A program made the position numbers and the translations under genes. From Sterolibacterium sp. (GTDB taxonomy: Bacteria; Pseudomonadota; Gammaproteobacteria; Burkholderiales; Rhodocyclaceae): a DNA stretch of 55,603 nucleotides. Where the stretch lies: NCBI GenBank assembly GCA_041665185.1, contig JBAYJH010000001.1:1-55603 (forward strand), read 5' to 3'. How positions within the stretch are numbered: the first letter of the stretch is position 1; each line of letters opens with the position of its first letter. The notes under the pieces are model-generated. The model ran no database searches. It saw only the letters and a program-made list of their open reading frames with translations, and was not told the DNA's origin. Of this stretch, positions 2,374 to 42,462 are shown piece after piece.

Positions 2374-4172
2374 TGAGGCGCCAGACCGTCATCCTCGCCG
2401 GCTTTCTGGTTGTGCTGGCACTGGTTCCGGCGCTGTTGCCGGAGTTTTATGTGACGTTGCTCAACTATATCGGCCTGTACGCGATAGTGGCACTCGGCCT
2501 GGTATTGCTCACCGGCGTCGGCGGGTTGACGTCGTTCGGTCAGGCGGCGTTTGTCGGTCTCGGCGCCTACACAACTGCCTATCTGACCACGACGAGTGAT
2601 TTGCCCGGGTGGCTGGCGATGTTTGGTGCTTCGCCCTGGCTGGCGCTAATCGCTGGGTTAGCGCTTACTGCGGTGGTAGCCTTTGTTCTAGGGGCCCTGA
2701 CGCTCCGTCTCTCGGGTCATTATTTGCCCCTGGGGACGATTGCGTGGGGCATCAGCCTGTACTTTTTGTTCGGCAATATCGAACAACTCGGCGGACACAC
2801 CGGCATCACCGGAATACCTTCACTGTCGGTATTTGGGCTCGAAGTGAAGTTCGGCCGTGAATTCTATTACCTCATTTGGGTGTTATTGCTGCTGGCGGTC
2901 TGGCTGACGCAGAATCTCCTTGATTCACGCGAGGGTCGGGCGATCCGCGCCCTCAAGGGGGGATCGCTGATGGCCGAGGCTATGGGTGTGGATACGGCAC
3001 GCTCGAAGACTGTGATCTTCCTGATTGCCGCGTTGTATGCCTGTCTATCCGGTTGGCTTTATGCCCATCTACAGCGCTTCGTCAATCCGACGCCGTTTGG
3101 ATTGCACATCGGCATCGAATACCTGTTTATGGCGGTACTGGGGGGAGCCGCTCACGTTTGGGGTGCGCTGCTCGGCGCCGGTGTCATTACCATCCTCAAG
3201 CAATGGCTCCAGGATTTGCTACCGAAACTATTCGGTAGCAGCGGGAACTTTGAAATGATCGTCTTCGGTTTGATGATGATAGTGATGTTGCAACGTGCTC
3301 GCGACGGACTGTGGCCGATATTGGTCCGGCTTGTTTCGATCAACGGCGAAAGCGGTCAAGTTGCGGCAGTGCCGCAGGCTGAACCGCTCGCAAAGAAGGC
3401 GCCCCCGCAAGTTGGCACCCGGTTACTGGAGGTCAGGGATGTCGTAAAGAAATTTGGCGGTCTGGTGGCCTGCAACAACATGAAGCTGTCGGTGCAGGCG
3501 GGCGAGGTGCTCGCGCTGATTGGACCCAATGGGGCGGGAAAGAGCACGATGTTCAACTGCATTTCGGGAGTGGACCCGGTTAGTTCGGGGGAAATCCATT
3601 TTCTGGGTGAGCGGGTCGATCAACTGAATTCGCGTGACATTGCCCGCCGCGGCATGAGCAGGACTTTTCAGCATGTGCGTCTATTGCCGACCATGAGCGT
3701 ATTGGAAAACGTCGCCATTGGCGCTCACTTGCGCGGCAAGAAAGGGGTGATCCCCGCATTGCTGCATCTGGACCGTGCCGAGGAACGGCGCTTGATGGCG
3801 GAGGCGGCCAGGCAGATCGAGCGTGTCGGCCTCAAGGGGCACATGTTCGACCAGGCAGGCAGCCTGGCCCTGGGCCAACAGCGAATTCTGGAGATAGCGC
3901 GGGCATTGGCGGCCGACCCCAGCCTGCTGCTGCTGGATGAGCCGGCTGCGGGATTGCGTTATCTGGAGAAGCAGGCACTCGCGGAGCTGCTGCGACGATT
4001 GCGTGCCGAGGGGATGGGTATCCTGCTGGTGGAGCATGATGTCGAATTCGTCATGGGGCTGGCGGATCGTGTGGTGGTGATGGAGTTCGGCGAGAAAATC
4101 GCCGAAGGCTTGCCGGAGCAGGTGCGGCAAGATCCCGTGGTACTGGAAGCCTATCTCGGGGGAGTGGCATGA
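2370..4172 (+). CDS. Fused LivM-type permease / LivG-type ATPase
   Basis: N-terminal membrane domain followed by an ABC ATPase (Walker [10 protein letters not shown], signature LALGQQR, Walker B LLLLDEP). Start taken at ATG 2370 after GAGGAGG rather than the ORF-track start 2331. Confidence 0.88.
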
Positions 4173-4933: not shown

Positions 4934-4937
4934 CCAT

Positions 4938-4953
4938 TGTTTCACGTGAAACT
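4938..4953. other. parS: parS centromere-like site, copy 1 (TGTTTCACGTGAAACT)
   Basis: 15/16 match to the chromosomal parS consensus tGTTnCACGTGAAACa. Lies about 2.7 kb upstream of parAB. Confidence 0.85.
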
Positions 4954-4979
4954 GGGGTGCGTCCGCGTGAACGCACCCC

Positions 4980-4995
4980 AGTTTCACGTGAAACA
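4980..4995. other. parS: parS centromere-like site, copy 2 (AGTTTCACGTGAAACA)
   Basis: 15/16 match to the parS consensus. It is the inverted partner of copy 1. Confidence 0.85.
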
Positions 4996-5053
4996 ATTCA
5001 GTTTTCCGAAGCACAAGGGTATGATTGCGCCTCTTTTTACTTGTCGTGGCCAA

Positions 5054-6955
5054 ATGCTGTTTCCTACCCGCTTCGATGTCATCGTTATTGGCGGCGGCCA
5101 TGCCGGTACCGAGGCGGCGCTTGCCGCCGCCCGTGCCGGGGCGAGCACACTGTTGCTGACACACAACATCGAAACCCTGGGCCAGATGTCGTGCAATCCG
5201 TCCATCGGAGGCATAGGTAAAGGCCATTTGGTGAAGGAAGTCGACGCGCTGGGCGGTGCCATGGCCGCTGCCGCTGACGAGGCGGGGATCCAGTTCCGCA
5301 TCCTGAATTCCAGCAAAGGTCCGGCAGTCCGCGCAACCCGCGCCCAAGTCGACCGAATTCTGTACAAGGCGGCTATCCGCCGCCGGCTCGAAAACCAGCC
5401 CAACCTGACTGTATTCCAGCAGGCCGCCGATGACTTGACGCTTGAGGGCGACCGGGTCACCGGAGTTGTCACCCAGCTTGGGGTTCGTTTCGCAGCGACG
5501 ACCGTAGTGTTGACCGCGGGGACTTTTCTCGGCGGCTTGGTTCATGTCGGATTGACGAACTATCAGGCCGGCCGCGCCGGCGATCCGCCTTCCCTCTCCT
5601 TGGCGCACCGCTTGCGCGAACTAAAGCTGCCGGTCGGCCGTCTCAAGACCGGGACGCCCCCTCGCCTGGATGGCCGCAGCATCGACTATTCGTTGTTGAG
5701 GATTCAGCCCGGCGATGATCCCGCTCCGGTGTTTTCATTTCTCGGCAACCGCGGACAACACCCCCGGCAAGTGCCTTGCTGGATTACGCATACCAATGTC
5801 CATACTCATGACATCATCCGCAACGGGCTCGACCGTTCCCCGATGTTTACTGGAGTGATTGAAGGCGTTGGTCCGCGTTACTGTCCGTCGATCGAAGACA
5901 AAATTCATCGCTTTGCCGGCAAGGACAGCCATCAGATCTTTCTTGAGCCGGAAGGCCTGGATACCCATGAGGTCTATCCACAGGGAATCTCCACCAGCCT
6001 GCCTTTCGATGTGCAACTGGCGTTGGTCCGCAGCATGCACGGGCTCGAAAATGCCCATATCCTGAGACCCGGTTATGCCATCGAATATGACTATTTCGAT
6101 CCGCGCGGACTCAAGTCGTCGCTTGAGACCAAGGCTGTCGCCGGCCTGTTTTTTGCCGGCCAAATCAATGGCACAACCGGCTATGAGGAGGCCGCGGCGC
6201 AGGGGTTACTGGCCGGCATCAATGCGGCATTGCAGGTCCAGGGCAGGTCTCCTTGGTGTCCGCGACGTGATCAGGCTTACCTTGGGGTATTGGTGGATGA
6301 CCTGATTACTCAAGGTGTGTCAGAGCCTTATCGGATGTTTACCAGCCGAGCCGAATACCGGCTGAGCCTTCGTGAAGACAATGCCGATTTGCGCCTGACC
6401 GAAATTGGTCGTGAACTGGGACTGGTCGACGATATCCGGTGGGAGGCCTTCAGCCGCAAGCGCGATGCCATTGATGCAGAGACCGAACGCTTGAAGTCCA
6501 GCTGGATCAACCCGAAGGCCATCAATAGCGACGACGCGTTGCGTGTCTTCGGCCAACCTCTGGAAAGGGAATATCGTTTGCTGGATCTCTTGCGCCGTCC
6601 GCAGGTCAGCTATACGGCATTGCAATCATTGGTCGGCGATCAACAGGCGGGTGCCCTCGATATGGACCCGCAAGTCATCGAACAAATAGAAATTCAAGCC
6701 AAGTATCAAGGCTACATCGACCGTCAGCAGGAGGAAGTGGCAAAGAGTGAAAGTTACGAGATGCTACGTCTGCCGATTGGTTTCGATTATGCCGCTGTCC
6801 CCGGGCTATCGATCGAGGTAAGGCAAAAGCTCAGCCAGCAACAGCCCGAAACCCTAGGTCAAGCCACGCGCATTCAAGGGGTAACGCCCGCGGCGATCTC
6901 CCTGTTATTGGTCCATTTGAAGCGTCATTCGCTTTACCAGAAACGCCGCGCATGA
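5054..6955 (+). CDS. mnmG: tRNA uridine-5-carboxymethylaminomethyl modification enzyme MnmG (GidA)
   Basis: N-terminal FAD fold [16 protein letters not shown] and MnmG-like sequence throughout. Start at ATG 5054 (MLFPTRFDV) gives 633 aa; the ORF-track start 4937 lies inside the parS palindrome. Confidence 0.95.
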
Positions 6956-7596
6956 GCCTGACAGTCGCCGAACAGATCCACGACGGAATCCAACAACTGG
7001 GCATAGGTCTGGCGACCGGCTCGGAGGAAAAGTTCGTCACCTATCTTGGCCTCTTGGCCAAGTGGAATCGTGTCTACAATCTGACTGCGGTGCGCGACGA
7101 GAATGCCATGGTCAGCAGGCACTTGCTCGATTCCCTGGCCGTGTTGGCCTATCTCGACGCAACTTCGAACGTCCTGGGCACGCTTGCCGATGTGGGTAGC
7201 GGCGGTGGTCTGCCCGGTATCCCCCTGGCAATCGCCCGGCCGCAACTCAAAGTCGAACTGATCGAGGCTAGCCACAAGAAAGCCAGCTTCCTGCAACAGG
7301 CGAAAATCGAGCTCGAACTGAACAATGTGAGCATACACTGCGGCCGAGTGGAGTCATTCAAGCCGAAGACACACTTTGACGTGGTGATCTCTCGGGCCTT
7401 TTCCAGTCTTGCCGATTTCGTGCAACTGGCTGGGCACTTGCTGGCGCCGACAGGCTACCTGCTGGCCATGAAGGGCGTCTATCCGGAGGAGGAGATACAG
7501 CAGTTGCCACCGGGATGGAAAATGCTAGAAAGCGTCCCGCTGGTGGTACCGGAACTCAAAGCCGAGCGGGATCTCATTGTCATTGGAAAGTCGTAA
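6952..7596 (+). CDS. rsmG: 16S rRNA m7G527 methyltransferase RsmG (GidB)
   Basis: 214 aa with SAM motif [19 protein letters not shown] overlap with mnmG. Canonical gidA-gidB-parA-parB order. Confidence 0.93.
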
Positions 7597-7608
7597 CAGG
7601 TACTTAAA

Positions 7609-8376
7609 ATGCATATTTTCGCCATAGCCAATCAAAAAGGCGGGGTCGGCAAGACCACCACTACGGTCAATCTTGCTGCGGCTCTCGCCGCCAGCGGGCA
7701 ACGTACGCTGCTGGTGGATCTCGATCCGCAGGGAAACGCCACCATGGGGTCGGGCGTGGATAAGCGTGGCCTGGAAAAATCGGTCTATCAAGTATTGCTC
7801 GGTCTCGCCAGTCTGGTCGAAGCAAGGACGGCTTCCCCTACCGGCAAATTCGATATCCTTCCGGCAAATCGAGATCTGGCCGGGGCAGAAGTCGAAATGG
7901 TCGAGTTGGAGCGGCGTGAAATGCGCTTGAAGGAAGCGCTCGCGTCACATGACGCCGATTATGATTTCGTCCTGATCGATTGCCCGCCGTCCCTTTCGTT
8001 GCTGACGCTGAACGGGCTGTGCGCCGCTCATGGCGTGGTGATACCCATGCAGTGTGAGTATTACGCCCTGGAAGGGCTGTCTGACCTGGTGAACACCATC
8101 AAGAAGGTGCATGCCAACCTCAACCGCGACCTGAAAATCATCGGCCTGTTACGGGTCATGTTCGATACCCGCGCAACCCTCGGCCATCAGGTATCGGCCG
8201 AGTTGGAACAGCATTTTGGCGACAAGGTCTTCAAGACTATCGTACCCCGCAACATTCGTCTTGCCGAAGCCCCCAGTTACGGTATCCCCGGGGTTCTGTT
8301 CGACAAGACGGCCAAAGGCGCGCAGGCGTATCAGGCTTTTGCCAGCGAGATGATCGAACGTGTCAAGACGATTTAG
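7609..8376 (+). CDS. parA: Chromosome partitioning ATPase ParA (Soj)
   Basis: 255 aa with the deviant Walker A NQKGGVGKTTT. Confidence 0.95.
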   Translation: MHIFAIANQKGGVGKTTTTVNLAAALAASGQRTLLVDLDPQGNATMGSGVDKRGLEKSVYQVLLGLASLVEARTASPTGKFDILPANRDLAGAEVEMVELERREMRLKEALASHDADYDFVLIDCPPSLSLLTLNGLCAAHGVVIPMQCEYYALEGLSDLVNTIKKVHANLNRDLKIIGLLRVMFDTRATLGHQVSAELEQHFGDKVFKTIVPRNIRLAEAPSYGIPGVLFDKTAKGAQAYQAFASEMIERVKTI

Positions 8377-8391
8377 AGGGACAATATCTTC

Positions 8392-9249
8392 ATGAACCCA
8401 CCCAAGCAAGTGAAGCAAAAAGGCCTTGGCCGCGGTCTTGGCGCGCTGCTCGATGCCAATACCGGTCCGGAGTCCACGCGCCAGGATACCTTGCATGTGA
8501 CCGCCTTGCAGCCGGGAAAGTACCAGCCGAGAACCCGCATGGACCAGGATTCTCTCAATGAACTGGCGGCGTCGATCAAGCTTCAAGGCGTCATGCAACC
8601 GATACTGGTACGGCCGCTGGGTGAGGGAAAATACGAGATCATCGCCGGCGAACGGCGCTGGCGGGCGGCGCAGCTGGCGGGAATGAGTGAAGTCCCGGCT
8701 TTGGTGCGGGATATCCCCGACGAAGCGGCATTGGCGATGTCGCTGATCGAGAATATTCAGCGGGAGAATCTGAATCCGCTGGAAGAGGCAGCCGGTATTC
8801 AGCGCCTGATAGACGAATTTTCCATGACCCACCAGGAGGCGGCGGATGCCGTCGGTCGTTCCCGGCCGGCAGCCAGCAACCTGCTGCGCCTGCTGCACTT
8901 GGCCAAGCCTGTGCAGGAGTGCCTGTTCTCGGGCGAACTGGACATGGGCCATGCCCGCGCATTGCTCCCCTTGGCCAAACACGACCAGGCCCGGTTAGCG
9001 GTTCAGGTGGTGCATCGAGGCCTGTCGGTTCGCGAAACCGAAAAAATGGTCCAAAAGGAGTTGAATCCGCCGGAAAACCGGGTTCCGGTTCATGCGGCGG
9101 ACCGCGACCTGATGCGGCTGGAAGAGGAGCTTGCCGACAAGATCGGTGCGCCCATCAAGGTGGTTGCCAACAAGAAGGGAATAGGTACCCTCACCATCAG
9201 GTTCAGCAGTCTCGAACAACTCGAGGGGATACTTGAACGAATTCGTTGA
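8392..9249 (+). CDS. parB: Chromosome partitioning protein ParB (Spo0J)
   Basis: 285 aa with the ParB box GERRWRAA and an HTH region. Directly follows parA. Confidence 0.95.
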   Translation: MNPPKQVKQKGLGRGLGALLDANTGPESTRQDTLHVTALQPGKYQPRTRMDQDSLNELAASIKLQGVMQPILVRPLGEGKYEIIAGERRWRAAQLAGMSEVPALVRDIPDEAALAMSLIENIQRENLNPLEEAAGIQRLIDEFSMTHQEAADAVGRSRPAASNLLRLLHLAKPVQECLFSGELDMGHARALLPLAKHDQARLAVQVVHRGLSVRETEKMVQKELNPPENRVPVHAADRDLMRLEEELADKIGAPIKVVANKKGIGTLTIRFSSLEQLEGILERIR

Positions 9250-9322
9250 TCGCCGAGCGCAATTTTGTCAGATCGGCAAAGGGATTCCTTGCCTCAGACT
9301 GACCCATTTGACGAATTTATGA

Positions 9323-9352
9323 TTGACTCAAATAATCCAGTGCGATTACAAT
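9323..9352 (+). promoter_or_regulatory. Candidate sigma70 promoter for the atp operon
   Basis: TTGACT (9323-9328), 18-nt spacer, TACAAT (9347-9352), in an AT-rich gap about 75 nt upstream of atpI. Confidence 0.4.
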
Positions 9353-9427
9353 TCACAAGTTTTGTGCAGCGCGCTACGCCTTAGGCACTTTAGCGCCGCC
9401 TAGAAAGCAACTTAATTACAGCAGGTT

Positions 9428-10640
<1,213 letters not shown>

Positions 10641-10670
10641 AAGTTTTCAATCCCGTCAATCGTCTCTTAA

Positions 10671-10979
<309 letters not shown>

Positions 10980-11016
10980 TCGGCGTCTCTCAACTGATTC
11001 CGGCTAGGGAGTAGCC

Positions 11017-11487
11017 ATGAACATCAATTTGACCCTGATCTCCCAGGCGATAGCGTTCGCGGTATTTATCTGGTTTACGGTGAAATTTGTCTGGCCGCCG
11101 ATGCTGACGGCCATCACCGAACGCCAGAAGAAGATCGAGGAAGGCCTCGCCGCGGCTGAGCGCAGCAAACAGGATCTCGAACTGGCCCAGGCCCGCTCGA
11201 CCGATACCTTGCGCGAAGCCCGCGAGAAATCAACCGAGATGATCGGTGGCGCCGAGCGCCAGGCGGCTCATATCATTGAAGAAGCGCGTGCCGAAGCCAC
11301 CAAGATCATCGGTCTGGCCCGCGTCGCCGCCGAAGGCGAGGCGACGGTTGCAGCCCAGCGCGCCAAGGAAAACCTGCGCGACCAGGTGGCCCTGCTGGCC
11401 GTCGCCGGTGCGGAGAAGATCCTGCGTCGTGAGGTGAATGCTCAGGTTCACAGCGAGCTGCTCGCCAGCTTGAAAGCGGAGCTCTGA
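11017..11487 (+). CDS. atpF: F0F1 ATP synthase subunit b
   Basis: 156 aa: one N-terminal TM helix followed by a long charged helix. Confidence 0.92.
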
Positions 11488-11493
11488 GAAACC

Positions 11494-12030
11494 ATGGCGG
11501 AAAACGTCACCATCGCGCGGCCATATGCCGAAGCAACCTATCAATTGGCTTTGTCCAGCAATACGCTGACGGAATGGTCCGAGGTTCTGGGGCGCATGGC
11601 AGATGTCGCCGCCAATCCGGACATGCGGGAGTGCATCGGCAATCCACGCTTCCCGGCCTCCGCCCTGGCGCAGATGTTCCTTGAGGCTGTCGGCGGCGAT
11701 CTGACAGCCGACCAGAAGAGCTTCGCGCAACTGCTGGTGGAGAATCGGCGCTTGCCTGTCGTCCCGGAGATTTGCGAGCTGTATCTTGAGCTGAAGAATG
11801 CTCACGATGGGGTCAAGGATGCGCTGATTACCTCGGCCTTCCCACTCGATGGGGCGAGTCTGAAGCAATTGGTGGGCGATCTGGAACAGCGTTTCAAGTG
11901 CAAGATTCAGGCGACGGTCACTGTCGATCCGGAGTTGATCGGCGGTGCCCGAATCGCGGTTGGCGATCAAGTGATCGATGCCTCGGTGCGCGGCAAACTT
12001 GCCGCAATGAGCGTAGCGCTACAGAACTAG
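11494..12030 (+). CDS. atpH: F0F1 ATP synthase subunit delta
   Basis: 178 aa, OSCP/delta-like, between atpF and atpA. Confidence 0.9.
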
Positions 12031-12040
12031 GAGTATTCAA

Positions 12041-13579
<1,539 letters not shown>

Positions 13580-13600
13580 GCGGACTTTCGGGAGCTGACC

Positions 13601-14470
13601 ATGGCTAGCGGCAAGGAAATTCGAACCAAGATCAAGAGCGTCCAGAATACGCGCAAGATCACCAAGGCCATGGAGATGGTCGCGGCCTCCAAGATGCGCA
13701 AGGCACAGGAGCGCATGAAGGCGGCCCGTCCTTACGGCGACAAGGTCAGGCGCATTGCTGCGAATCTGGCACAGGCCAACTCGGAGTACCACCACCCGTT
13801 TCTTGCCAAGATTGCCGACATCAAGCGTGCCGGCATGATTGTCGTGACGACCGACAAGGGACTGTGCGGCGGCCTGAACACCAACGTGTTGCGTTTGGCG
13901 CTGAACCGCTTCAAGGAATGGGAAGCAGCCGGTGTCAGTGACGTCCGCGTCGCCTGCATCGGCAACAAAGGACTCGGCTTCATGCAGCGCCTCGGCGCGA
14001 AAGTCGTGTCGAAGGTAACGGGTTTGGGCGACACGCCGCACCTGGAGAAATTGATCGGGCCGGTCAAGGTGATCCTCGATTCCTTCCAGAACGGCGAGTT
14101 GGACACGGTCTCTATCGTGTATACGCGTTTTGTGAATACCATGAAGCAGGAACCGGTGATGGAGCAGTTGTTGCCCCTCAGCGGCGAGAAACTCCGCGAC
14201 GACCAGGCCCATAGCTGGGACTACCTGTACGAGCCCGACTCGAAGGCCGTGGTGGACGAATTGCTGGTGCGCTATGTAGAGGCTTTGGTATATCAGGCAG
14301 TGGCGGAGAACATGGCTTCCGAGCAATCGGCACGAATGGTGGCGATGAAGGCGGCGTCAGACAACGCCGGAAGCGTGATCAATGAGCTGCAACTGGTCTA
14401 CAACAAGACCCGCCAGGCTGCGATCACCAAGGAACTTGCAGAAATTGTCGGCGGCGCGGCCGCCGTTTAA
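13601..14470 (+). CDS. atpG: F0F1 ATP synthase subunit gamma
   Basis: 289 aa with N-terminal [31 protein letters not shown]. Confidence 0.96.
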
Positions 14471-14495
14471 CGAATTTATTGTTTGGGGAATGACG

Positions 14496-15874
<1,379 letters not shown>

Positions 15875-35403: not shown

Positions 35404-36549
35404 ATGAGCCCACCCGTCGTCATCCTCGGCAGCGGCCTGGCCGGCATCAGCGTCGCCCGCGAACTGCGCAAGCTGGACAAGGAAGTCCCGCTGACCCTGG
35501 TCACGGCCGACGACGGCGGGTTCTACTCCAAACCCAGCCTGTCGAACGCCCTGGCCGCCGGCAAGTCCGCTACCCAGCTGGTGCTCACTCAGCGCGAGGC
35601 GCTGGCGGCGCAGTTGAACGTCGAGATTCGCGCCCAGACCTGGGTGACACGGTTGCTGCCGGGCGAGCATGCCATCGAGACCGAAGCCGGCCGCCTCGAA
35701 TACGGCCGGCTGGTGCTGGCCCTCGGCGCCCAGCCGATCCGCCTGCCCATAGCGGGTAACGGCGCGCAGGAAATCCTCTCGGTCAACGGCCTCGCCGACT
35801 ACGCCGCCTTCCGCGACCGGTTGGCGGGCGTCCAGCGTGTCGCGATCCTTGGCGGCGGCCTGATCGGCTGCGAGTTCGCCAATGATCTGCGCCTGGCCGG
35901 GATAGCAGCGGATGTGTTCGACCTGGCACCGCAGGCGCTGGGCCGCCTGCTGCCGGCACAGGCCGCCGAGTTCTTCCGCACCCGGCTGGAATCAGCCGGA
36001 GTGAGTTTCCACTTCAATACCACCATCGCCCGCGTGGATCGCACCCAGGCTGGCCTGGTCCTCACCGACACCCAGGGCCAGGAATTCAGCGCCGATCTGG
36101 TCCTCTCCGCCGTCGGCCTGAAACCGGAAACCGAACTGGCGCGCGCGGCCGGGTTGCAGACCAATCGCGGCGTGGTGACCGACAAGCTGCTGGCGACTTC
36201 CGACCCGGATGTGTTTGCGCTGGGCGATTGTCTCGAAGTCCAAGGCCTGGTGCTGCCTTTCGTCCTGCCCATCATGCAGCAGGCGCGGGCGCTGGCCAAG
36301 ACGCTGGCCGGCACACCCACGGCGCTGAGCTACCCGGCCATGCCGGTGGTGGTGAAAACACCCGCCTGCCCGACCGTGGTCTGCCCGCCTCCGGCCGGCG
36401 CCGCAGGCGCATGGCGTGAGGAAGTCGAACCGACGGGGGTGCGCGCCTTGTTCAAGGACGCCGACGGCAAGCCGCTGGGATTTTCTCTAGTCGGCGAGGC
36501 GGTCAAGGACAAGCAGGCGTTGGTGGCACAGATGCCGGGGTGGCTGTAG
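35404..36549 (+). CDS. NAD(P)H-dependent rubredoxin reductase (FAD pyridine nucleotide-disulfide oxidoreductase)
   Basis: 381 aa with dinucleotide folds VVILGSGLAG and VAILGGGLIGCE. Starts 3 nt after rubredoxin. Confidence 0.8.
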   Translation: MSPPVVILGSGLAGISVARELRKLDKEVPLTLVTADDGGFYSKPSLSNALAAGKSATQLVLTQREALAAQLNVEIRAQTWVTRLLPGEHAIETEAGRLEYGRLVLALGAQPIRLPIAGNGAQEILSVNGLADYAAFRDRLAGVQRVAILGGGLIGCEFANDLRLAGIAADVFDLAPQALGRLLPAQAAEFFRTRLESAGVSFHFNTTIARVDRTQAGLVLTDTQGQEFSADLVLSAVGLKPETELARAAGLQTNRGVVTDKLLATSDPDVFALGDCLEVQGLVLPFVLPIMQQARALAKTLAGTPTALSYPAMPVVVKTPACPTVVCPPPAGAAGAWREEVEPTGVRALFKDADGKPLGFSLVGEAVKDKQALVAQMPGWL

Positions 36550-36612
36550 CGTTTCCCGCCTGCTCCTGACTCACGCGGTGCCGCACTGAATCCCGCCGTT
36601 GACGGACGGCTC

Positions 36613-36687
36613 CTCGGCCTTATGTGAAGCTTCACATAAGGCCGATTATGCACAGTCGTCGATTATGTGAAGTTGTGGGATGAATTG
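36613..36687. repeat. Left terminal inverted repeat of the RIT-type element
   Basis: ctcggccttatgtgaagcttcacataaggccgattatgcacagtcgtcgattatgtgaagttgtgggatgaattg. It is the reverse complement of 39784-39858 except for one base. Confidence 0.9.
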
Positions 36688-36738
36688 CACGCCAACGGTT
36701 GATTGGCGGCGGCCAGCGCGAATTAGATCTTCACATAA

Positions 36739-37758
36739 TCATAGTGTTTTCAGGAAGTCGATCAGAGAGTCGGGCGCCCGGTAGCGCTGGATCTTGGCCT
36801 CGGGTTCGTGCAGCCTGGCCAACGCGCGTTCCTTCATCGTCAGGTCTGCCTCGACATAGTGGTGAGTCGTAGTGGGGCTTTCATGCCCGAGCCAAAGTGC
36901 GATTACGCTGATATCGACGCCGGCCTGCAACAGATGCATCGCCGTTGTGTGACGGATCGTATGTGGCGAGATCCGTCGCTTTGCCAAGTCGGGGTTGGTC
37001 TCTGTTGCAGTCTTCACCGCCAAAGCGAGTCTTTGGTGAGCATTGTTTCGCGTCATCGCGTGTCCGCAGCGATTTGGCAGCAATGGCGACACCGTGTCGA
37101 ACTGCGAATTCAACTTCAACCAGGACCGTATCGCCTTGACGGTCGAACGCCACAGCGGCACGCTGCGCTGCTTTCTGCCCTTGCCATGCAGATGCACGCA
37201 AGCCGCACCCTCGTCGAGCACCGCCTCGCCGACCGTGACCCCAGTGATCTCCGATACGCGCGCCCCGGTGTTGTAGAGCAGCAGAAACAGCACATGGTCC
37301 CGCTGTCCAATCCACGTGCCATCCGGCGTACCGATCACCGCCAGCATTTCCTCACGCGACAGGTAGCCGAACATGGGGCGCTCGAAGCGCTTCACCGGAA
37401 CGCCCAGTGCGCGCTCAATCATCTGCAACGACGACACATCCCGGTGGGCGGCAAACTTCAGGAACGACCGCAGCGCCGCCAGGCGCGCATTGCGGCTGCG
37501 CACGGAATTGTGGCGCTGGCGTTCCAGATGATCGAGGAAGGCCATGATCAGCTCCGGCGTGATGTCGGCCAAGGTCATCGTGGTCGGAGACTTGCCCAGA
37601 CGGGACTGGGCGAAGTCGAGAAACAGCACGAAAGCGTCACGGTAGGCAGCAATGGTTTGCGGGCTGAGCGCACGCTGCTGCGTCAGGTACTCGGCGAAAT
37701 AGGCTTGCACGAGCGTCGCAAATGACGGTGGTACCCTGGCTGGCTTACTCATCGTCAT
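36739..37758 (-). CDS. Tyrosine recombinase, third gene of the trio (RitC position)
   Basis: About 340 aa. Catalytic residues R (GARVSE), HxxR (HTIRHT), H (LGHES) and Y (HHYVEA). Its start overlaps the end of the middle gene by 8-14 nt. Confidence 0.85.
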   Translation of the reverse strand: MTMSKPARVPPSFATLVQAYFAEYLTQQRALSPQTIAAYRDAFVLFLDFAQSRLGKSPTTMTLADITPELIMAFLDHLERQRHNSVRSRNARLAALRSFLKFAAHRDVSSLQMIERALGVPVKRFERPMFGYLSREEMLAVIGTPDGTWIGQRDHVLFLLLYNTGARVSEITGVTVGEAVLDEGAACVHLHGKGRKQRSVPLWRSTVKAIRSWLKLNSQFDTVSPLLPNRCGHAMTRNNAHQRLALAVKTATETNPDLAKRRISPHTIRHTTAMHLLQAGVDISVIALWLGHESPTTTHHYVEADLTMKERALARLHEPEAKIQRYRAPDSLIDFLKTL

Positions 37759-38719
37759 CTCCCGGGAGATCGGCGAAGCGCTCGAACTTGCCACCGGCCA
37801 GTGCCATCAGTTCGGGCACGGCTGTCAGATACCAGTAGGTGTAGAAGATCTCGGCATGGCCCATGTAGGTCGACAGCGCCAGCATCATCCGATCCACATC
37901 GGTGCCCTCGGCATGCCAGAGCATCATGCGCCTGACGGCAAAGGTGTGACGCAGGTCATGCAGCCGTGGCGCCTCATGAGCGCCGCGATTGACCCAGCTT
38001 AGGCTGTCACGTAGCGCGGTGAAGACGCGATGTGCCTGCCGCTCGCCGAGCGGCTGCCCCAGTCGTCGGCCACGGCTGCTGATGAGGAACGGGATATCGG
38101 CTGTCGTCGGAACATGCCGCGCACGCTGCCGCCGGTAGCGCGTCAACGCCGCGACGGTGCTCGGATGCACCGGCAACTGGCGGGACTTGGCGAACTTGGT
38201 CTGCCGCACGATCAGCATTCCGCGCTTGAGATCGACGTCGGTATCGCGCAGGTGAATGGCTTCCGAGACGCGCAGACCGGTCGAAGCCATCAGGCCGAAC
38301 AGCGTCTCGAAGGTGGCCGGGCGCAAACTGCCACGTGGCCCGAGCTTGCGGGCCGCCGCCAGTAATTCGACGATTTCCTCTTCGCGGTAAATATGCGGCG
38401 CCACGCGACCTGGCTCCGGGCCGAAGATCAACTCATCCGGCACCTCGGTATCCGGTTCGAACTGTTTCAGGTAACGGATGAAATGCCGCAGCCTTGCCAG
38501 ACGGCGTGCCCAGGTGCCCGGTGATCCTCGGCCACCTTTACCCTGACGCACCCAGTCTGTCATGAGTTCGACGGTCAGCGGCCCGCGGTGACGCCGAATG
38601 GTGACGAAACGCGCAAAGCCGGCCAGAAACGTATCCCGCGATCGCAAGTGGAAGCCAAGGCGATGGCGCTCGGCAAGATAGTCGTCGATCCTTGCCTGCA
38701 GGCTGATGCGCGCGCTCAT
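37745..38719 (-). CDS. Tyrosine recombinase, second gene of the trio (RitB position)
   Basis: 324 aa starting MSARISLQARIDDYL. Catalytic residues R (GLRVSE), HDLRHT, H (MGHAE) and Y. ATGA overlap with the first gene. Confidence 0.85.
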   Translation of the reverse strand: MSARISLQARIDDYLAERHRLGFHLRSRDTFLAGFARFVTIRRHRGPLTVELMTDWVRQGKGGRGSPGTWARRLARLRHFIRYLKQFEPDTEVPDELIFGPEPGRVAPHIYREEEIVELLAAARKLGPRGSLRPATFETLFGLMASTGLRVSEAIHLRDTDVDLKRGMLIVRQTKFAKSRQLPVHPSTVAALTRYRRQRARHVPTTADIPFLISSRGRRLGQPLGERQAHRVFTALRDSLSWVNRGAHEAPRLHDLRHTFAVRRMMLWHAEGTDVDRMMLALSTYMGHAEIFYTYWYLTAVPELMALAGGKFERFADLPGDDDE

Positions 38720-39676
38720 GATGCGCTCCCGGGCCACGGCAGCGGGACGGTGGACAGCTTCGGCGTGTCGAGCTTGGCGTAGATCAAGGTGGTGTTCAGC
38801 GAACGGTGGCGCAGCACATCGGCCACTTCCTTGAGCGAACTGCCGTTCTCGACAAGGCGACACGCCAAGGTGTGGCGCAGTGCATGCGCGCTGGAATGCA
38901 TCAGGCCAATGCGGCGGCAGGCGCGTTTGATTACCTTCTGGATCGCCGTTGAGGTGATGGGGGTGATCATGTCCTCCCTTCCGGCGGACGAAGATGGCAG
39001 GGTTGCTGGTGGTGGGGCGTTCATGTTGGAGATAGTCGACCAGCGCCCGTCCTGTTTCCATCGGCAAGGGCAGGATGTCCTGTCGCAGCGACTTCGTGCC
39101 CCGCAACGTCACCGTGCCGACACGCCAGTCGATGTCATCGATCATGAGATGAGCGATTTCTCCGGACCTCAATCCCATGTCCAATGCGCAACGCACGATT
39201 GCGTACCCACGTTTCGGTAAGCGTAGCCCGGCAGCAAAGGAGTTCAGCAGGCGCTCGACTTCGTCCGGCTTGAGCGCACGTGGCAATGAAGCCAGCTTCC
39301 AGTGGACGGGATTCGAGATGACGGCAGTCAGCTTGCCGACCTGATCGCCGCAGGTGGCCCGATAGCGAAGGTAACTTCGCAACGTCGCAGCCAGATGGGA
39401 TGCGTGAGAAGCTGATCGGTGCGCACCCAACCGCGTTGCAAGGAACTCGCGAATATCGTCAGGCCGCAGCTTCGCAATCTGGATGACGCGCCGCTTGAAT
39501 TTCACTTGCAGCAACAAGCCTACGGCGCGGAGCCGACCCTTGCGCGTGCCCGCCGCGAGGCCGCGTACATCGCGCAGGTGTTCGTCGTAGCGATGCAACT
39601 CTTCGACAATGTGATCCGACAGTGCTGCCGGTGGCCGTGCGCCTGACGCGGCACGGTGGGTAGTGGCCTGGGTCAT
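38716..39676 (-). pseudogene. Tyrosine recombinase, first gene of the trio (RitA position), apparently frameshifted
   Basis: The N-terminal part is in the frame of the 652-aa ORF (MTQATTHRAASG...). The catalytic C-terminus (HALRHTLA...LRHRSLNTTLIYAK) is in the frame of ORF 38716-39024. The switch lies near 38973-38990 and the span is 961 nt. Confidence 0.75.
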
Positions 39677-39783
39677 AACAGTCTCCTGAAGTGGATTCGC
39701 CACTTCAGACCACCGCAGAAATTATGTCCAGCTTACGGCAGCATCACCCGCTGCCTGGCCGCATACTGCCTACCCCCTCAGAC

Positions 39784-39858
39784 CAATTCATCCGACAACT
39801 TCACATAATCGACGACTGTGCATAATCGGCCTTATGTGAAGCTTCACATAAGGCCGAG
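39784..39858. repeat. Right terminal inverted repeat of the RIT-type element
   Basis: Reverse complement of 36613-36687 with one mismatch (at 36677). Confidence 0.9.
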
Positions 39859-39913
39859 AATCGGACGTAGCAGGCTGCTACGTTGAGCGTCTCGGTGGGT
39901 CGCAAAGAGTCTC

Positions 39914-41269
39914 TTAGTTAACTACGCCGAATCGTTCGCACAGGCCTTCTACCGCCTCGCGCCCTCCACGCACCCGCAAGAACGCGCCCTCAGCGTCGGC
40001 GCGTTCCTCCAGCACTTCACAACTAGCGAAGATTTCGCCGCGTCGTTGCTGCGCCGACCAGGGCAGGAACAGCTCCGCTTCGACCAGATCCTGCCGGAAG
40101 AAGGCGACGATCGCCTCGCGCAGCAAGGCGATGTCGCCGGCGCGGCGCGCGCTCATCACGATGCAATCGGGGTACTGCGCTCTTAGCGCTGCTTCGCGTT
40201 CGGCTTGCGCCGCCGCATCGCCGACATGATCGATCTTGTTGAAGACGCGGATGCGCGGCAGGTCGTTGGCGCCGATCTCGTCGAGCACCTGGTCGGTGAC
40301 CGCGAGCTGCCGCTCGAACCCGGGATCGCTCGCGTCGATGACGTGGAGCAGCAGCGCCGCATCCAGCGCCTCTTCGAGCGTCGATTTGAACGAGGCGACC
40401 AGGCCGTGCGGCAGGTTCTTGATGAAGCCCACGGTGTCGCTGACCAGCAACCGCGGCCGGCTCTCCGGCTGGAGGGCGCGCACGGTGGTGTCGAGGGTGG
40501 CGAAAAGCTTGTCTTCGACCAACACCTCGCTACCCGTGAGGGCGCGCATCAGGGTGGACTTGCCGGCATTGGTGTAGCCGACCAGCGCCACGCTGGCCAG
40601 TCCCTGGCGCTCTTGCCGCCGCGCGCGCTGCGTTTGGCGCTCGACATCCATTGCGGCGAGCTCCTGTTGCAGTTCGGCGATACGGTCACGGATCTTGCGC
40701 CGGTCCAGCTCGGTGTGCGACTCGCCGGCGCCGCGCCCGCCGGTGCCGCTGCGCTGCCGCCCCTGGGGCCCGGCGAGCTTGGCCGCTTCGCGCAGGCGCG
40801 GCGCCATATAGCCGAGGCGGGCGATCTCCACCTGGGCACGGGCGGCGCGGGAGCTGGCGTGGCGGTGGAAGATTTCGAGAATCACCATGGTGCGGTCCAT
40901 GACCTCGCAGCCGACTTCCTTTTCGAGGTTGCGCGCCTGCGACGGCGAGATTTCGTGATCGACGAAGATGGCGTCGATCTTCCCGGCGTCGGGGTCGGCT
41001 GCGGCCTGGGGTATTCTTCCCAGCTCGACGGGTTCCGGCTGGTTGTCCACGAAGGCGCGTATCTCCTGACGCTTGCCGGCACCCAGGTAGGCCGTTGTGT
41101 CGAAGCTGGCGCGCTTTTGGGTAAACGTGGCGGTGATCTCGAAGCCCAGGGTCTTGGCGAGATCGCGCAGCTCGGCCAGCGAAGCCTCGAACTCGACGTC
41201 GCTCACGCTCGGCAGTTGCACCGCCGCGACGACGGCATATCTGGGCTGCTCTTTGACTGCTCTTGGCAT
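39914..41269 (-). CDS. hflX: GTPase HflX
   Basis: 451 aa from ATG 41269. G motifs GYTNAGKST, DTVGF and NKID, plus an HflX-type N-terminal domain. Confidence 0.9.
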   Translation of the reverse strand: MPRAVKEQPRYAVVAAVQLPSVSDVEFEASLAELRDLAKTLGFEITATFTQKRASFDTTAYLGAGKRQEIRAFVDNQPEPVELGRIPQAAADPDAGKIDAIFVDHEISPSQARNLEKEVGCEVMDRTMVILEIFHRHASSRAARAQVEIARLGYMAPRLREAAKLAGPQGRQRSGTGGRGAGESHTELDRRKIRDRIAELQQELAAMDVERQTQRARRQERQGLASVALVGYTNAGKSTLMRALTGSEVLVEDKLFATLDTTVRALQPESRPRLLVSDTVGFIKNLPHGLVASFKSTLEEALDAALLLHVIDASDPGFERQLAVTDQVLDEIGANDLPRIRVFNKIDHVGDAAAQAEREAALRAQYPDCIVMSARRAGDIALLREAIVAFFRQDLVEAELFLPWSAQQRRGEIFASCEVLEERADAEGAFLRVRGGREAVEGLCERFGVVN

Positions 41270-41375
41270 TCGGGGATGGCTACACTTGAGGGGGCGAAGC
41301 CGGATCATACCCGCCTATGCAATGCTTGCCTGGAGTCTCGTGGTTGTTTCGGCAAGAACCAACTCAGCGGATACC

Positions 41376-41615: not shown

Positions 41616-42462
41616 ATGATTCCTATTTCCATCCTCGACCTCTCCCCGATTGCCCAAGGCAGCGATGCCGCCCAGTCATTCCGTAACACCCTCGATCTTG
41701 CCCGGCACGGCGAGGGCTGGGGCTACCGGTGTTTCTGGCTGGCCGAACATCACGGCATGCCCGGCATCGCCAGCGCCGCCACCGCGGTCCTGGCGTGCGC
41801 CGGGTTCCGACCCGATCACGGCGCGCGCATTGCGGCGCAATCTGGCTTCCGGCGCGGACGAATTCCCGCAGGATGTCGGCGAACTGATGGGCTACTTCTC
41901 CGCCGCGGACAGGCAGGCGGTTCGTGCCGTACCGGGCGCCGGCCTGAACGTGCCGATATGGATACTCGGATCAAGCTTGTACGGCGCGCAACTGGCCGCC
42001 GCCCTGGGCTTGCCCTATGCGTTCGCCTCGCATTTTGCCCCGGCGCAGATGATGCAGGCCATTGCCTTGTATCGCGTCAATTTCCGGCCATCGGCACAAT
42101 TGCAGCAGCCTTACGTCATGCTTGGCTACAACGTGTTTGCCGCTGATAGCGACGAGGAGGGACGACTTCTTGCCACCTCCGCGCAGCAAGCCTTCGTCAA
42201 TCTGCGCAGTGGCCGTCCCGGCCAATTGCCGCCGCCGCTGGCCGACTATCCGAGCCGCATCGGAGCGCGCGAGCGGGCGCTGCTGGACGAGATTCTTTCC
42301 TGCACGGCCATGGGTGCGCCGGATACCGTGGCCAATCAGGTGCAGGGATTCGTTGCCCGCACCCAGGCGGATGAATTGATGATTACCTCGCAGATCTTTG
42401 ATCACGCCGCCCGTCTGTGTTCCTACGAGATCACTGCAAGCGTCTGCGCCGCCCTGGGATGA
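41616..42462 (+). pseudogene. LLM-class (luciferase-like) flavin-dependent oxidoreductase with an internal out-of-frame deletion
   Basis: N-terminus [59 protein letters not shown] is in one frame. From about 41790 the family-like sequence ([24 protein letters not shown]... to the end) continues in another frame. The core between them looks too short for the family, and the span is 847 nt. Confidence 0.75.

Follow-up and report, generated by a model that had tools for sequence, protein, structure and literature searches.

A recombinase-in-trio element with a frameshifted ritA and palindromic ends in Sterolibacterium sp.

Between two convergent housekeeping genes of an uncultured betaproteobacterium (Sterolibacterium sp., assembly GCA_041665185.1, contig JBAYJH010000001.1) lie three overlapping tyrosine-recombinase genes bounded by long inverted repeats. 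Do they form a recombinase-in-trio (RIT) element, could this copy still move, and what do its ends say about how RITs recombine? We analysed a window of 55,603 nt, the whole stretch from position 1 of the contig, and compared the element with 57 related metagenome loci and with two copies from Paraburkholderia sprentiae that have matching empty sites. The explanation that we consider probable as a whole is a decayed RIT of the short-RitA lineage, likely non-autonomous, with dif-like cores and insertion by a crossover in a 6-mer.

Identity and setting of the element

The chromosomal locus is a real copy of a RIT element, lying on the minus strand at about 36614-39857. The genes concerned are as follows.

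35404-36549, plus strand: rubredoxin reductase gene
36739-37752, minus strand: ritC, intact, 337 aa (339 aa from an upstream ATG at 37758)
37745-38719, minus strand: ritB, intact, 324 aa
38716-39676, minus strand: ritA pseudogene with its ATG at 39676-39674, encoding a 319-aa protein once one C is removed
38959-38963, minus strand: ritA frameshift site, with C5 (G5 on the plus strand) in place of the C4 of relatives
39914-41308, minus strand: hflX

The first-pass annotation had already proposed a RIT between convergent genes, and both the class and the flanking genes were confirmed. Three same-strand tyrosine-recombinase genes stand in the order A-B-C with -4/-8 overlaps, their products find position-specific protein matches, and the unit ends, in keeping with published RITs, in long inverted repeats that include palindromes. 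The overlaps were also located correctly: the ritA stop codon (TGA, 38716-38718) and the ritB start codon (ATG, 38719-38717) share an ATGA, and between the ritB stop codon (37745-37747) and ritC the overlap is 8 nt with the ATG at 37752 or 14 nt with that at 37758. At 3,244-3,246 bp the unit falls in the RIT size range used for comparison (about 3.2-3.5 kb), and it aligns to the two-copy RIT of a P. sprentiae plasmid at 76.6% nucleotide identity, 92% of length.

All three products match the Pfam family Phage_integrase (PF00589; E-values 4e-30, 5e-18 and 3e-29), and the motifs G.R.[SG]E, HxxRH and H...Y are encoded for each. The earlier claim of a full catalytic set in every gene holds for RitB (GLRVSE, HDLRH, H..Y) and for RitC (GARVSE, HTIRH, H..Y), which also has a SAM-like N-terminal domain; for RitA the set is complete only across the frameshift. 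We ran BLASTP against positional trios from seven elements, two of them published, including RIT4A of Aromatoleum aromaticum EbN1 plasmid 2 and ritABC of Sphingobium herbicidovorans. Each protein matches solely its positional counterpart, at 157-548 bits compared with at most 54 bits across positions (157-465 for the repaired RitA, 179-513 for RitB and 267-548 for RitC). The best NCBIfam matches are XerC and XerD, every one under its cut-off: RitA, RitB and RitC score 119.6, 81.7 and 172.0 bits against the TIGR02224 cut-off of 335, and the XerD scores fall short likewise.

The repaired RitA (319 aa) aligns to residues ~105-414 of long RitAs (412-418 aa); the N-terminal ~100 aa are missing here and in the P. 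sprentiae and EbN1 relatives. RitA has been described with two sequential core-binding domains and RitC with an extra conserved C-terminal helix (Smyshlyaev 2021). Judged from the alignment, the RitA of the window is without the first of these two domains, and its RitC runs ~40 residues past the catalytic Tyr (…HHYVEADLTMKERALARLHEPEAKIQRYRAPDSLIDFLKTL), a tail that is kept in relatives.

The locus thus resembles the RIT elements of Van Houdt et al. (2009, 2012, PMC3414803) and Ricker et al. (2013) in its three overlapping same-strand genes ritA-ritB-ritC, in having a separate subfamily for each protein, in its length of ~3.2 kb, in its terminal inverted repeats with palindromes and in its betaproteobacterial host. 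Table S4 of Van Houdt 2012 (PMC3414803) gives -4/-8 overlaps for RIT2 and RIT3, and these two types, from Leptothrix, Accumulibacter and Aromatoleum EbN1, are the nearest. Its sequence places the element in the short-RitA lineage with -4/-8 overlaps. It differs from other RITs in its frameshifted ritA and its short RitA of 319 aa, and its inverted repeats measure 75 nt compared with the 28-34 bp quoted for the archetype. The window copy is a new, decayed member of an already known class.

Outside the RIT, the window showed no tRNAs and no further palindromes, with Pfam matches all to housekeeping families; nothing here contradicts the earlier statement that no other DNA in the window is clearly mobile. 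The region bears genes of origin-proximal type (mnmG, the atp operon), and a luciferase-like gene near the RIT is also broken.

The ritA reading frame

The first-pass annotation had overlooked that ritA is not intact: one surplus C at 38959-38963 splits the gene. The open reading frame list therefore contains a 652-aa frame (37745-39703) and a 102-aa frame (38716-39024). The N-terminal 239 codons of ritA continue in the frame of ritB, giving a fused frame of 643 aa from the ATG, and the N-terminal part with the first Arg and the C-terminal part with HALRH and the Tyr are read in different frames. C4 stands at this position in all 14 aligned relatives, 11 of which encode a 319-aa RitA. As read from these frames, the copy could make full-length RitB and RitC and no normal RitA. 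The frameshift makes the copy most likely non-autonomous, so that its movement would depend on RitA provided in trans by an intact relative.

We considered whether the element might instead be intact and autonomous, with the surplus C an artefact of homopolymer sequencing or assembly. The lesion is a single base in a C-run, and ritB, ritC and both 75-nt ends are undamaged, with 74/75 identical inverted repeats. Against this, C5 recurs identically in a MEGAHIT-style ENA contig (ERZ27249449), a Logan contig (SRR6484324) and a JGI contig (3300037810), three assemblies that possibly do not stem from independent samples, and the JGI contig differs elsewhere from the window by 3 SNPs. A run of five bases is short for systematic short-read error, the adjacent luciferase-like gene is broken too, and frameshifted rit genes with lesions at other positions are frequent among related copies. 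We therefore regard an artefact as improbable. Decay of rit genes is common: three related copies (L097, L104 and L106) have independent frameshifts in ritA, L130 has one in ritB and L101 one in ritC. We rejected programmed frameshifting as an explanation for ritA, because relatives are all in frame here and other copies have their frameshifts elsewhere; phase variation was judged unlikely because the C-run has only 4-5 bases.

Terminal repeats and target sites

The 75-nt inverted repeats of the first-pass annotation were recovered with 74/75 matching positions (99% complementary), 3096 nt apart. They are not a chance occurrence, since the central 20-mer of the palindrome occurs twice in the window, only at the two element ends, compared with 0.00 expected occurrences. 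The features of the ends are listed below, without strand unless one is given.

36605-36613: ritC-side target arm, GACGGCTCC on the plus strand, GGAGCCGTC read outward from the element
36613-36687: ritC-side inverted-repeat arm, 75 nt, containing palindrome, B box, 7-nt spacer and A box
36614-36645: ritC-side palindrome, TCGGCC-TTATGTGAAG-CTTCACATAA-GGCCGA
36646-36655: ritC-side B box, TTATGCACAG
36663-36672: ritC-side A box, TTATGTGAAG
36729-36741, minus strand: distal box TGATTATGTGAAG, overlapping the ritC stop codon
39686-39708, minus strand: 9-bp stem-loop CTGAAGTGG-cgaat-CCACTTCAG, abutting the upstream side of the ritA Shine-Dalgarno sequence AGGAGA
39721-39731, minus strand: distal box CTGGACATAAT, upstream of ritA
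39784-39858: ritA-side inverted-repeat arm, 75 nt
39799-39808: ritA-side A box, CTTCACATAA on the plus strand, followed by a 7-nt spacer
39816-39825: ritA-side B box, CTGTGCATAA on the plus strand
39826-39857: ritA-side palindrome
39858-39866: ritA-side target arm, GAATCGGAC

Each terminus is a perfect 32-nt palindrome in which 10-bp boxes and the 6-mers TCGGCC and GGCCGA are arranged as outer 6-mer, two back-to-back A boxes and inner 6-mer; together with the adjoining boxes this gives box-6-mer-box cores such as CTGTGCATAA-TCGGCC-TTATGTGAAG. The boxes are invariant or almost so among 13 full-length relatives. Of the distal sequences, ATTATG is kept in 13/13 aligned right ends, followed by ~55 variable nt, and ACATAAT does not change among the 13 aligned left ends, whose sequence at this point otherwise varies. 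The stem-loop upstream of ritA is conserved in the closest sub-lineage and partly elsewhere. A search of the element ends for a sigma-70-type promoter or a terminator returned none beyond chance.

Comparison of filled and empty sites shows how relatives inserted: recombination is conservative, and the crossover falls within the 6-mer GGCCGA, which reads TCGGCC on the opposite strand. As read from flanks and empty sites, the target is the imperfectly palindromic GnCnGnWnn-GGCCGA-nnWnCnGnC, and each junction keeps one copy of the 6-mer. At 99.94% identity to each other, the two P. sprentiae copies have their palindromes on opposite sides; one is bounded by the direct repeat GGCCGA, the other by TCGGCCTT. 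The uninterrupted site ATGACCGCAAT-GGCCGA-ACTCCCATC is present on a P. fungorum plasmid, and TGCTTG-TCGGCCAT-TGCGGACG on a Caballeronia plasmid, each identical to the predicted empty site. Among other insertions of relatives the outer 6-mer, within which the crossover takes place, differs (TGCCGA, GGCTGA, AGCCGA, GGACGA). Across 54 distinct flanks the motif shows A/T at position 3 (51), C at position 5 (47), G at position 7 (50) and C at position 9 (45), and in the 17 B-box-side flanks G at position 7 is universal (17/17) and C at position 9 nearly so (16/17). Both window flanks fit nnWnCnGnC at 4/4 informative positions. This motif is part of the target and not of the element, since near-identical elements carry different flanks and the empty sites hold the arms. 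Within the window, a search for unoccupied target-like sites with at most 2 mismatches gave 8, compared with 4.0 expected; 3 of the 8 overlap the element's own ends (36605, 39843 and 39852), so that the count is uninformative.

The lineage is also represented by gene-less mini-RITs of 250-500 bp, which keep both ends and are found at different sites at 98-99% identity. Their distribution shows that they have moved to new sites, and the near-identical P. sprentiae copies with their empty sites attest to mobility of the lineage as well. In the open literature that we searched, outside which Ricker et al. (2013) lay, we found no description of the target consensus or of mini-RITs.

At the window's own locus, we sought an empty site with HflX across 185,579 species genomes. 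This retrieved 80 loci at no more than 88% identity, none of which has a rubredoxin reductase gene or rit genes nearby or shares the gene neighbourhood; the hflX neighbourhood also varies among those relatives, so that it yields no synteny argument. Exact-protein look-ups with RitC, HflX and rubredoxin reductase returned the same filled locus alone, from three assemblies. No second copy of the window element, empty site or circle junction was found in the look-ups and assembled contigs, and no circle junctions or tandem copies were found in assembled contigs among 75 palindromes.

Models of movement and relation to other systems

We propose that the A (TTATGTGAAG) and B (TTATGCACAG) boxes at each end are putative recombinase sites, arranged in box-6 bp-box cores that resemble the dif sites of XerC/XerD. 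The intermediate would be a circle in which the two ends, once joined, make up one palindrome containing two cores in mirror image. Use of either core would then produce the two single-palindrome end types that are seen, and three recombinases may divide among themselves three arm types, namely the element's A and B arms and the target's T arm. In the window copy, the directly repeated cores could excise the element and leave a solo 32-bp palindrome. We put forward tentatively, at somewhat less than even chances, that one recombinase for each arm type is why RITs need three, that A and B boxes make up XerD/XerC-like heterodimer cores with a 6-bp overlap between them, that the joined ends present a double mirror-image core allowing insertion in either orientation, and that ~115 nt per end would suffice in cis, as trans-mobilised minis suggest. 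RITs have shown elevated mobilome coverage but no circle-junction reads (Nielsen et al. 2017). A point against the circle scheme is that a one-palindrome circle entering a naive target predicts a palindrome at one end only.

Palindromes at both ends are in fact frequent, occurring in 8/13 full-length elements (the window copy included) compared with 0/16 distinct minis (hypergeometric p ~3e-4). We considered several ways in which one event might produce this state: integration of an ssDNA hairpin, coupling as in Tn916, and duplication of 4 bp (GGCC) at a centre of 8 bp. Each clashes with the observed arm spacing or 6-mer orientation. The state might instead reflect more than one event, either a hybrid of left- and right-palindrome copies at a rearrangement breakpoint or entry of a circle into a pre-existing solo palindrome. 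The left junction is indeed that of palindrome-left copies and the right junction that of palindrome-right copies; a solo, degenerate palindrome shares a contig with a both-palindrome RIT (L105), and hflX stands here without any of the neighbours seen in 80 relatives. The last argument is weak, however, because that neighbourhood varies among the relatives themselves. The flanks of L104 form one 13-nt inverted repeat and hence a single locus, which speaks against rearrangement there, and 8/13 is high for secondary events. We thus see such a multi-step origin as possible and rather unlikely.

Perfect 32-nt palindromes at both tips also invite the idea that the mobile form of RITs is a linear DNA whose ends are covalently closed hairpins, with telomere-resolvase-like cleavage at palindrome centres, in which case the two window palindromes would be substrates. 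Exonuclease-protected RIT DNA without circle junctions fits this idea, and hairpin intermediates have been proposed (Nielsen et al. 2017); telomere resolvases likewise have a tyrosine-recombinase catalytic domain. Yet a palindrome is present at a single end in 5 full-length elements and in 16/16 distinct minis, and the minis still moved. The P. sprentiae junctions and empty sites sit at the palindrome-edge 6-mers and not at the centre, and hairpins on the flanks would break the chromosome. We give hairpin ends little credence.

The cores have the geometry of dif and of the elements that exploit it (IMEX), with similar arms (GCATAA-N6-TTATGT.AA): each arm matches E. coli dif at 8/11 positions with the same 6-bp spacing (dif sequence PMC3025954), and Rit proteins are 'simple' Xer-like tyrosine recombinases. 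It might follow that host XerC/XerD act on the cores, as for CTX phage and other IMEX, with the Rit proteins accessory. The arm matches of 8/11 plus 8/11 around a 6-bp centre favour this, but the central 6-mer is TCGGCC and not TGTATA, and insertion is at targets other than dif. A complete catalytic set is retained by each of the three Rit proteins across the lineage, and the rit genes are conserved in order and overlapping in many phyla; a host-driven reaction is thus very improbable. In contrast to dif and IMEX, RITs have cores at both ends of the mobile unit, bring their own enzymes, which score far under the XerC/XerD cut-offs (172 vs 335 bits at best), and insert at non-dif sites. Whereas dif is a single site near the terminus, the cores of the window copy lie among genes of origin-proximal type.

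The minis resemble MITEs in being gene-less relatives of 250-500 bp that keep both ends and occupy different sites. Classical MITEs derive from DDE transposons and generate target-site duplications via staggered cuts, whereas the minis stem from a tyrosine-recombinase element and share the 6-bp crossover sequence with the target. The multi-recombinase elements of PMC10214605 resemble RITs in that they encode several tyrosine recombinases, insert at specific sites and have 6 bp of junction sequence common to element and target. They differ from RITs, which are without a fourth protein (Tfp/GinC, TnpC/Srap) and without cargo, consist of the gene set RitA/B/C, and end in long inverted repeats with palindromes.

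Taken by itself, the locus is just one more decayed RIT copy, in an uncultured betaproteobacterium, and leaves the neighbouring genes unaffected. Its chief worth is as an entry point to the mechanism of RITs: no laboratory has yet reproduced their transposition, and PMC10214605 gives their target specificity as 'not tested'. The comparison defines the 10-bp boxes, the 6 bp in which crossover occurs and a consensus for the target, and it supplies two natural pairs of filled and empty sites from cultured Paraburkholderia as well as natural mini-substrates of 250-500 bp; these parts would permit the direct design of a plasmid integration/excision assay and of DNA-binding tests of RitA, RitB and RitC. 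If the three-arm reading is true, it would answer the old question of why RITs need three recombinases.

Identity and gene layout of the element

RIT (recombinase in trio) elements comprise three adjacent, overlapping tyrosine recombinase genes, ritA-ritB-ritC, each of its own family, in a unit of ~3.5 kb with overlaps of typically 4-8 bp and terminal inverted repeats or palindromes (PMC3414803, PMC10214605, PMC5737581). As reference trios we used the published RIT4A of Aromatoleum aromaticum EbN1 plasmid 2 (Table S4, PMC3414803) and ritABC of Sphingobium herbicidovorans, together with trios from plasmid records of Paraburkholderia sprentiae, P. phymatum, Mesorhizobium and Rhodococcus. In an all-against-all BLASTP of these positional trios, each protein of the window copy matches its own positional counterpart alone: RitA, once its reading frame is repaired, at 157-465 bits (other proteins ≤47), RitB at 179-513 bits (others ≤51) and RitC at 267-548 bits (others ≤54). 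Gene order, overlaps, protein families and terminal repeats all fit, and the first-pass annotation was right to call this locus a RIT element; it is a decayed copy.

36613-39858, minus strand: interval holding all three rit genes
38719-37745, minus strand: ritB, 324 aa, intact
37752-36739, minus strand: ritC, 337 aa, intact

Much of the layout claimed earlier is borne out. The three recombinase genes share the minus strand and each product has a Pfam Phage_integrase match; the TGA of ritA shares an ATGA with the ritB ATG (38716-38719), and ritB and ritC overlap by 8 nt from ritB stop to ritC start, or by 14 nt with an upstream ATG. Table S4 of PMC3414803 gives this -4/-8 pattern for the RIT2/RIT3 types of betaproteobacteria. 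The flanking genes converge on the element (rubredoxin reductase ends at 36549, hflX at 39914), and a repeat finder returned 75-nt inverted arms at 36613-36687 and 39784-39858, 99% complementary with 3096 nt between them. The catalytic set attributed to all three genes is intact in ritB and ritC, whereas ritA is split over two frames. The ORF list has no separate ritA because the RitA N-terminus, with the GLRSGE arginine, and the C-terminus, with HALRH and the catalytic Tyr, lie in different frames in a three-frame translation; a 652-aa ORF (39703-37745) and a 102-aa ORF (38716-39024) appear instead.

On alignment with its closest cultured homologue, ritA has one base too many in the run CACCCCCAT, at a C5 run (38959-38963) that is C4 in 14/14 aligned relatives, 11 of which encode a 319-aa RitA. 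Removing one C restores ...RRKGGHDHPITSTAIQKVIKRAC... and collinearity with RitA homologues. The same frameshifted sequence occurs in ENA metagenome contig ERZ27249449, Logan contig SRR6484324 and JGI contig 3300037810, the last of which has three SNPs relative to the window, all outside the element. Since three assemblies carry the same lesion, we read it as a real, fixed mutation and regard an artefactual extra C as improbable. Frameshifts at other, all different positions are found in ritA of L097, L104 and L106, ritB of L130 and ritC of L101 (all related loci), so either rit pseudogenisation seems frequent in this lineage or indel errors are present in some of these metagenome assemblies. 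Without RitA provided in trans by another copy, the window copy is probably unable to move.

RitA is described as having two core-binding domains (Smyshlyaev et al. 2021). The window RitA differs in being a short form, also common to the P. sprentiae and EbN1 relatives; it aligns to residues ~105-414 of the 412-418-aa RitAs, so that the first core-binding domain would be missing. The best NCBIfam matches of all three proteins are XerC and XerD, far under the cut-offs, which agrees with grouping the Rit proteins with the Xer-like 'simple' recombinases. Among plasmids, 461 records carry a RitB homologue. EbN1 plasmid 2 carries truncated and nested relatives of the window element (L087 3712-8247 and L088 2048-6864), in which a ritA-ritB fragment adjoins the complete RIT4A trio and ISAzo6 interrupts ritC of another copy. 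A perfect 9-bp stem-loop (CTGAAGTGG / CCACTTCAG; 39686-39708, minus strand) abuts the ritA Shine-Dalgarno/ribosome-binding site on its upstream side; when 13 full-length relatives are aligned it is kept in the closest ones, and ritA expression may be under its control. No promoter-like or terminator-like sites above chance were found at the element ends.

The element's GC content (0.60-0.65) is slightly lower than that of neighbouring DNA. The window runs through liv transporter genes, mnmG, the atp operon, an RND efflux system, ubiE and a SNF2 helicase gene, then a LysR-family regulator gene (at a guess from its context, oxyR), rubrerythrin, rubredoxin, rubredoxin reductase, the RIT element and hflX, and finally a broken luciferase-like gene, topA, dprA, fmt and rsmB; it contains no tRNAs. 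A set of mnmG (gidA) and the ATP synthase operon, here at 4937-15874, is typical of the origin-proximal region of proteobacterial chromosomes. The best HflX matches (86-88% identity) are from Sulfuritalea, Sulfuricellaceae and Rhodocyclales MAGs. The luciferase-like monooxygenase gene beside hflX (41616-42462, plus strand) is spread over two frames, the N-terminal part in the one starting at 41616 and the C-terminal part in one that ends at 42462; the Pfam match is limited to profile positions 149-308 of 314, so that ~45 residues of the family core appear to be absent.

Element ends and insertion target

The outer 32 nt of both arms (36614-36645 and 39826-39857) are each the same perfect palindrome, TCGGCCTTATGTGAAGCTTCACATAAGGCCGA, whose central 20-mer has no other site in the 55.6-kb window (0.00 expected by chance). 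In gene orientation the left end reads flank, TCGGCC-TTATGTGAAG-CTTCACATAA-GGCCGA-TTATGCACAG-TCGTCGA-TTATGTGAAG, and the right end is its mirror image. Two types of 10-bp putative recombinase box are present, A (TTATGTGAAG) and B (TTATGCACAG), both conserved in the 13 aligned relatives. The unit of box, 6 bp and inverted box has the geometry of a tyrosine recombinase core: compared with E. coli dif (GGTGCGCATAA-TGTATA-TTATGTTAAAT, PMC3025954), the element core ACTGTGCATAA-TCGGCC-TTATGTGAAGC agrees at 8/11 positions per arm. The same alignment reveals one extra conserved box per end amid variable DNA, CTGGACATAAT at ~100 nt inside the left core and TGATTATGTGAAG covering the ritC stop at the right end. 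One Logan contig (SRR6484324, 3178 nt; L003) corresponds to window 39824-36647, the RIT alone with both contig ends inside the palindrome. Such breakage shows short-read assembly cutting RITs out, and these elements may be under-reported or mis-joined.

Scanning metagenomes once for the end motif gave 57 loci, and flanks were taken from L001 (the RIT-bearing P. sprentiae locus), L089 and L092-L148, giving 54 + 17 distinct sequences. The 54 distinct A-box flanks are non-random at position 3 (A/T, 51/54), position 5 (C, 47/54), position 7 (G, 50/54) and position 9 (C, 45/54); of the 17 distinct B-box flanks, all 17 have G at position 7 and 16 have C at position 9, and conservation continues to position 15. 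These positions show the insertion target to be a conserved, imperfect palindrome with a 6-bp centre, GnCnGnWnn-GGCCGA-nnWnCnGnC. Both flanks of the window copy (36605-36613 and 39858-39866) agree with the motif at 4/4 informative positions. The outermost 6-mer is sometimes off consensus (TGCCGA, GGCTGA, AGCCGA, GGACGA, TTACGA), as expected of a crossover region. The flank motif is a property of the target, because near-identical elements have different flanks and empty sites contain the arms; the same two observations exclude it as part of the element. The insertion site at L104 resembles a terminator hairpin followed by a T-run.

Empty sites and miniature derivatives

Among cultured relatives, the nearest lies on P. 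sprentiae plasmid pl2WSM5005 (76.6% identity across 92% of the element), which carries two intact RIT copies 99.94% identical across 3,201 bp. Copy 1 starts with GGCCGA without a palindrome and ends in a full palindrome whose final six bases are GGCCGA; copy 2 starts with a full palindrome (TCGGCCTT...) and ends ...TCGGCCTT. Both copies thus lie between direct repeats of 6-8 bp that belong to the element's own core. We reconstructed the corresponding empty sites and searched for them, and both were found: a P. fungorum plasmid has an uninterrupted ATGACCGCAAT-GGCCGA-ACTCCCATCTTCCAATG, and a Caballeronia plasmid has the empty site TGCTTG-TCGGCCAT-TGCGGACG. Such filled and empty pairs bear the signature of conservative site-specific recombination inside a 6-bp overlap. 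At L001 970-1068 a right end of the P. sprentiae RIT stands alone as a remnant (~100 nt, full palindrome included) and overlaps an annotated PAS-domain gene at its 3' end. Immediately left of each of the two P. sprentiae insertion sites lies DNA of a repeated, unannotated sequence family found in Paraburkholderia and Burkholderia plasmids (L001 2650-2771, L154 330-470, hits H66-H79). Since this family ends exactly at GGCCGA, RITs may be inserting where another repeat stops.

Gene-less derivatives (mini-RITs) were found at ~16 distinct loci, at 246-506 bp with one of 889 bp. Each retains both ends, ~40 nt of the ritA 5' region and the ritC 3' end, and all have the palindrome at one end only.

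Mini-RIT loci, first part: L092/L145, L099/L102/L122/L143, L142, L108, L144, L109, L110, L112
Mini-RIT loci, second part: L113, L114, L118, L120, L128, L137, L138, L140

A 478-bp mini-RIT sits at two sites with unlike flanks (99.0% identity; L099, L142), as does one of 374 bp (98.1%; L108, L144). Near-identical copies in different flanks argue that mini-RITs have moved in trans, and that the terminal ~115 nt per side would suffice in cis.

Palindromes at both ends and routes of movement

The P. sprentiae filled and empty sites are compatible with a circular form, in which the joined ends would make one palindrome with two mirror-image cores (B box-TCGGCC-TTATGGAAAGCTTCGCATAA-GGCCGA-B box), either of which could recombine with a target; a one-palindrome circle entering a naive target would yield a palindrome at one end. 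No circle junction was found among the 75 palindromes in contigs, nor in mobilome reads (Nielsen et al. 2017, PMC5737581). Among the 13 full-length elements with both ends present, 8 (the window copy included) have a palindrome at each end and 5 at one end only. Both-end palindromes are thus seen in 8/13 full-length elements versus 0/16 mini-RITs (p ~3e-4, hypergeometric).

A copy with both palindromes has directly repeated cores, through which it could be excised to leave a solo 32-bp palindrome. At L105 (~3209-3240) we observed a solo degenerate terminal palindrome, TCGGCC TTATGGAAAGCTTTGCAAAA GGCCGA, with no RIT boxes adjoining; it lies ~6.8 kb from a full-length RIT with palindromes at both ends on the same contig. 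Their occurrence on one contig supports repeated rounds of excision and re-integration into solo palindromes, once a first solo exists. Solo palindromes acting as landing pads would predict that the site of the window copy, when unoccupied, reads GACGGCTCC-32 nt-GAATCGGAC, and palindromes both made during insertion would predict GACGGCTCC-6 nt-GAATCGGAC. It is also possible that the both-palindrome window copy is a hybrid of two copies, implying rearrangement; at L104 the two flanks make up a single 13-nt inverted repeat, so this reading is unlikely there. The hairpin-ended linear intermediates proposed by Nielsen et al. 2017 (PMC5737581) are a rival reading that fits poorly both with junctions at the palindrome edge and with mini-RITs that move with a palindrome at one end only.

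Why three proteins would be needed for cutting four strands has been considered hard to see (Van Houdt et al., PMC3414803). Three putative arm types are present in this lineage: A, B and the target arm T. If a Xer-like A+B heterodimer served the element core and the third protein, as a dimer, served the target core, the need for three recombinases would be accounted for.

As a single instance the window copy is of modest interest. The comparison that started from it yielded a consensus for the target, a defined crossover, cores that resemble dif and natural mini-substrates, for which, Ricker et al. 2013 aside, we found no description in the searchable literature, where RitA/B/C are mentioned in just four relevant papers. 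A target-type sequence, ATGACCGCAAT-GGCCGA-ACTCCCATC, could serve as a defined substrate, and consensus, crossover, cores and mini-RITs together make the RIT mechanism directly testable.
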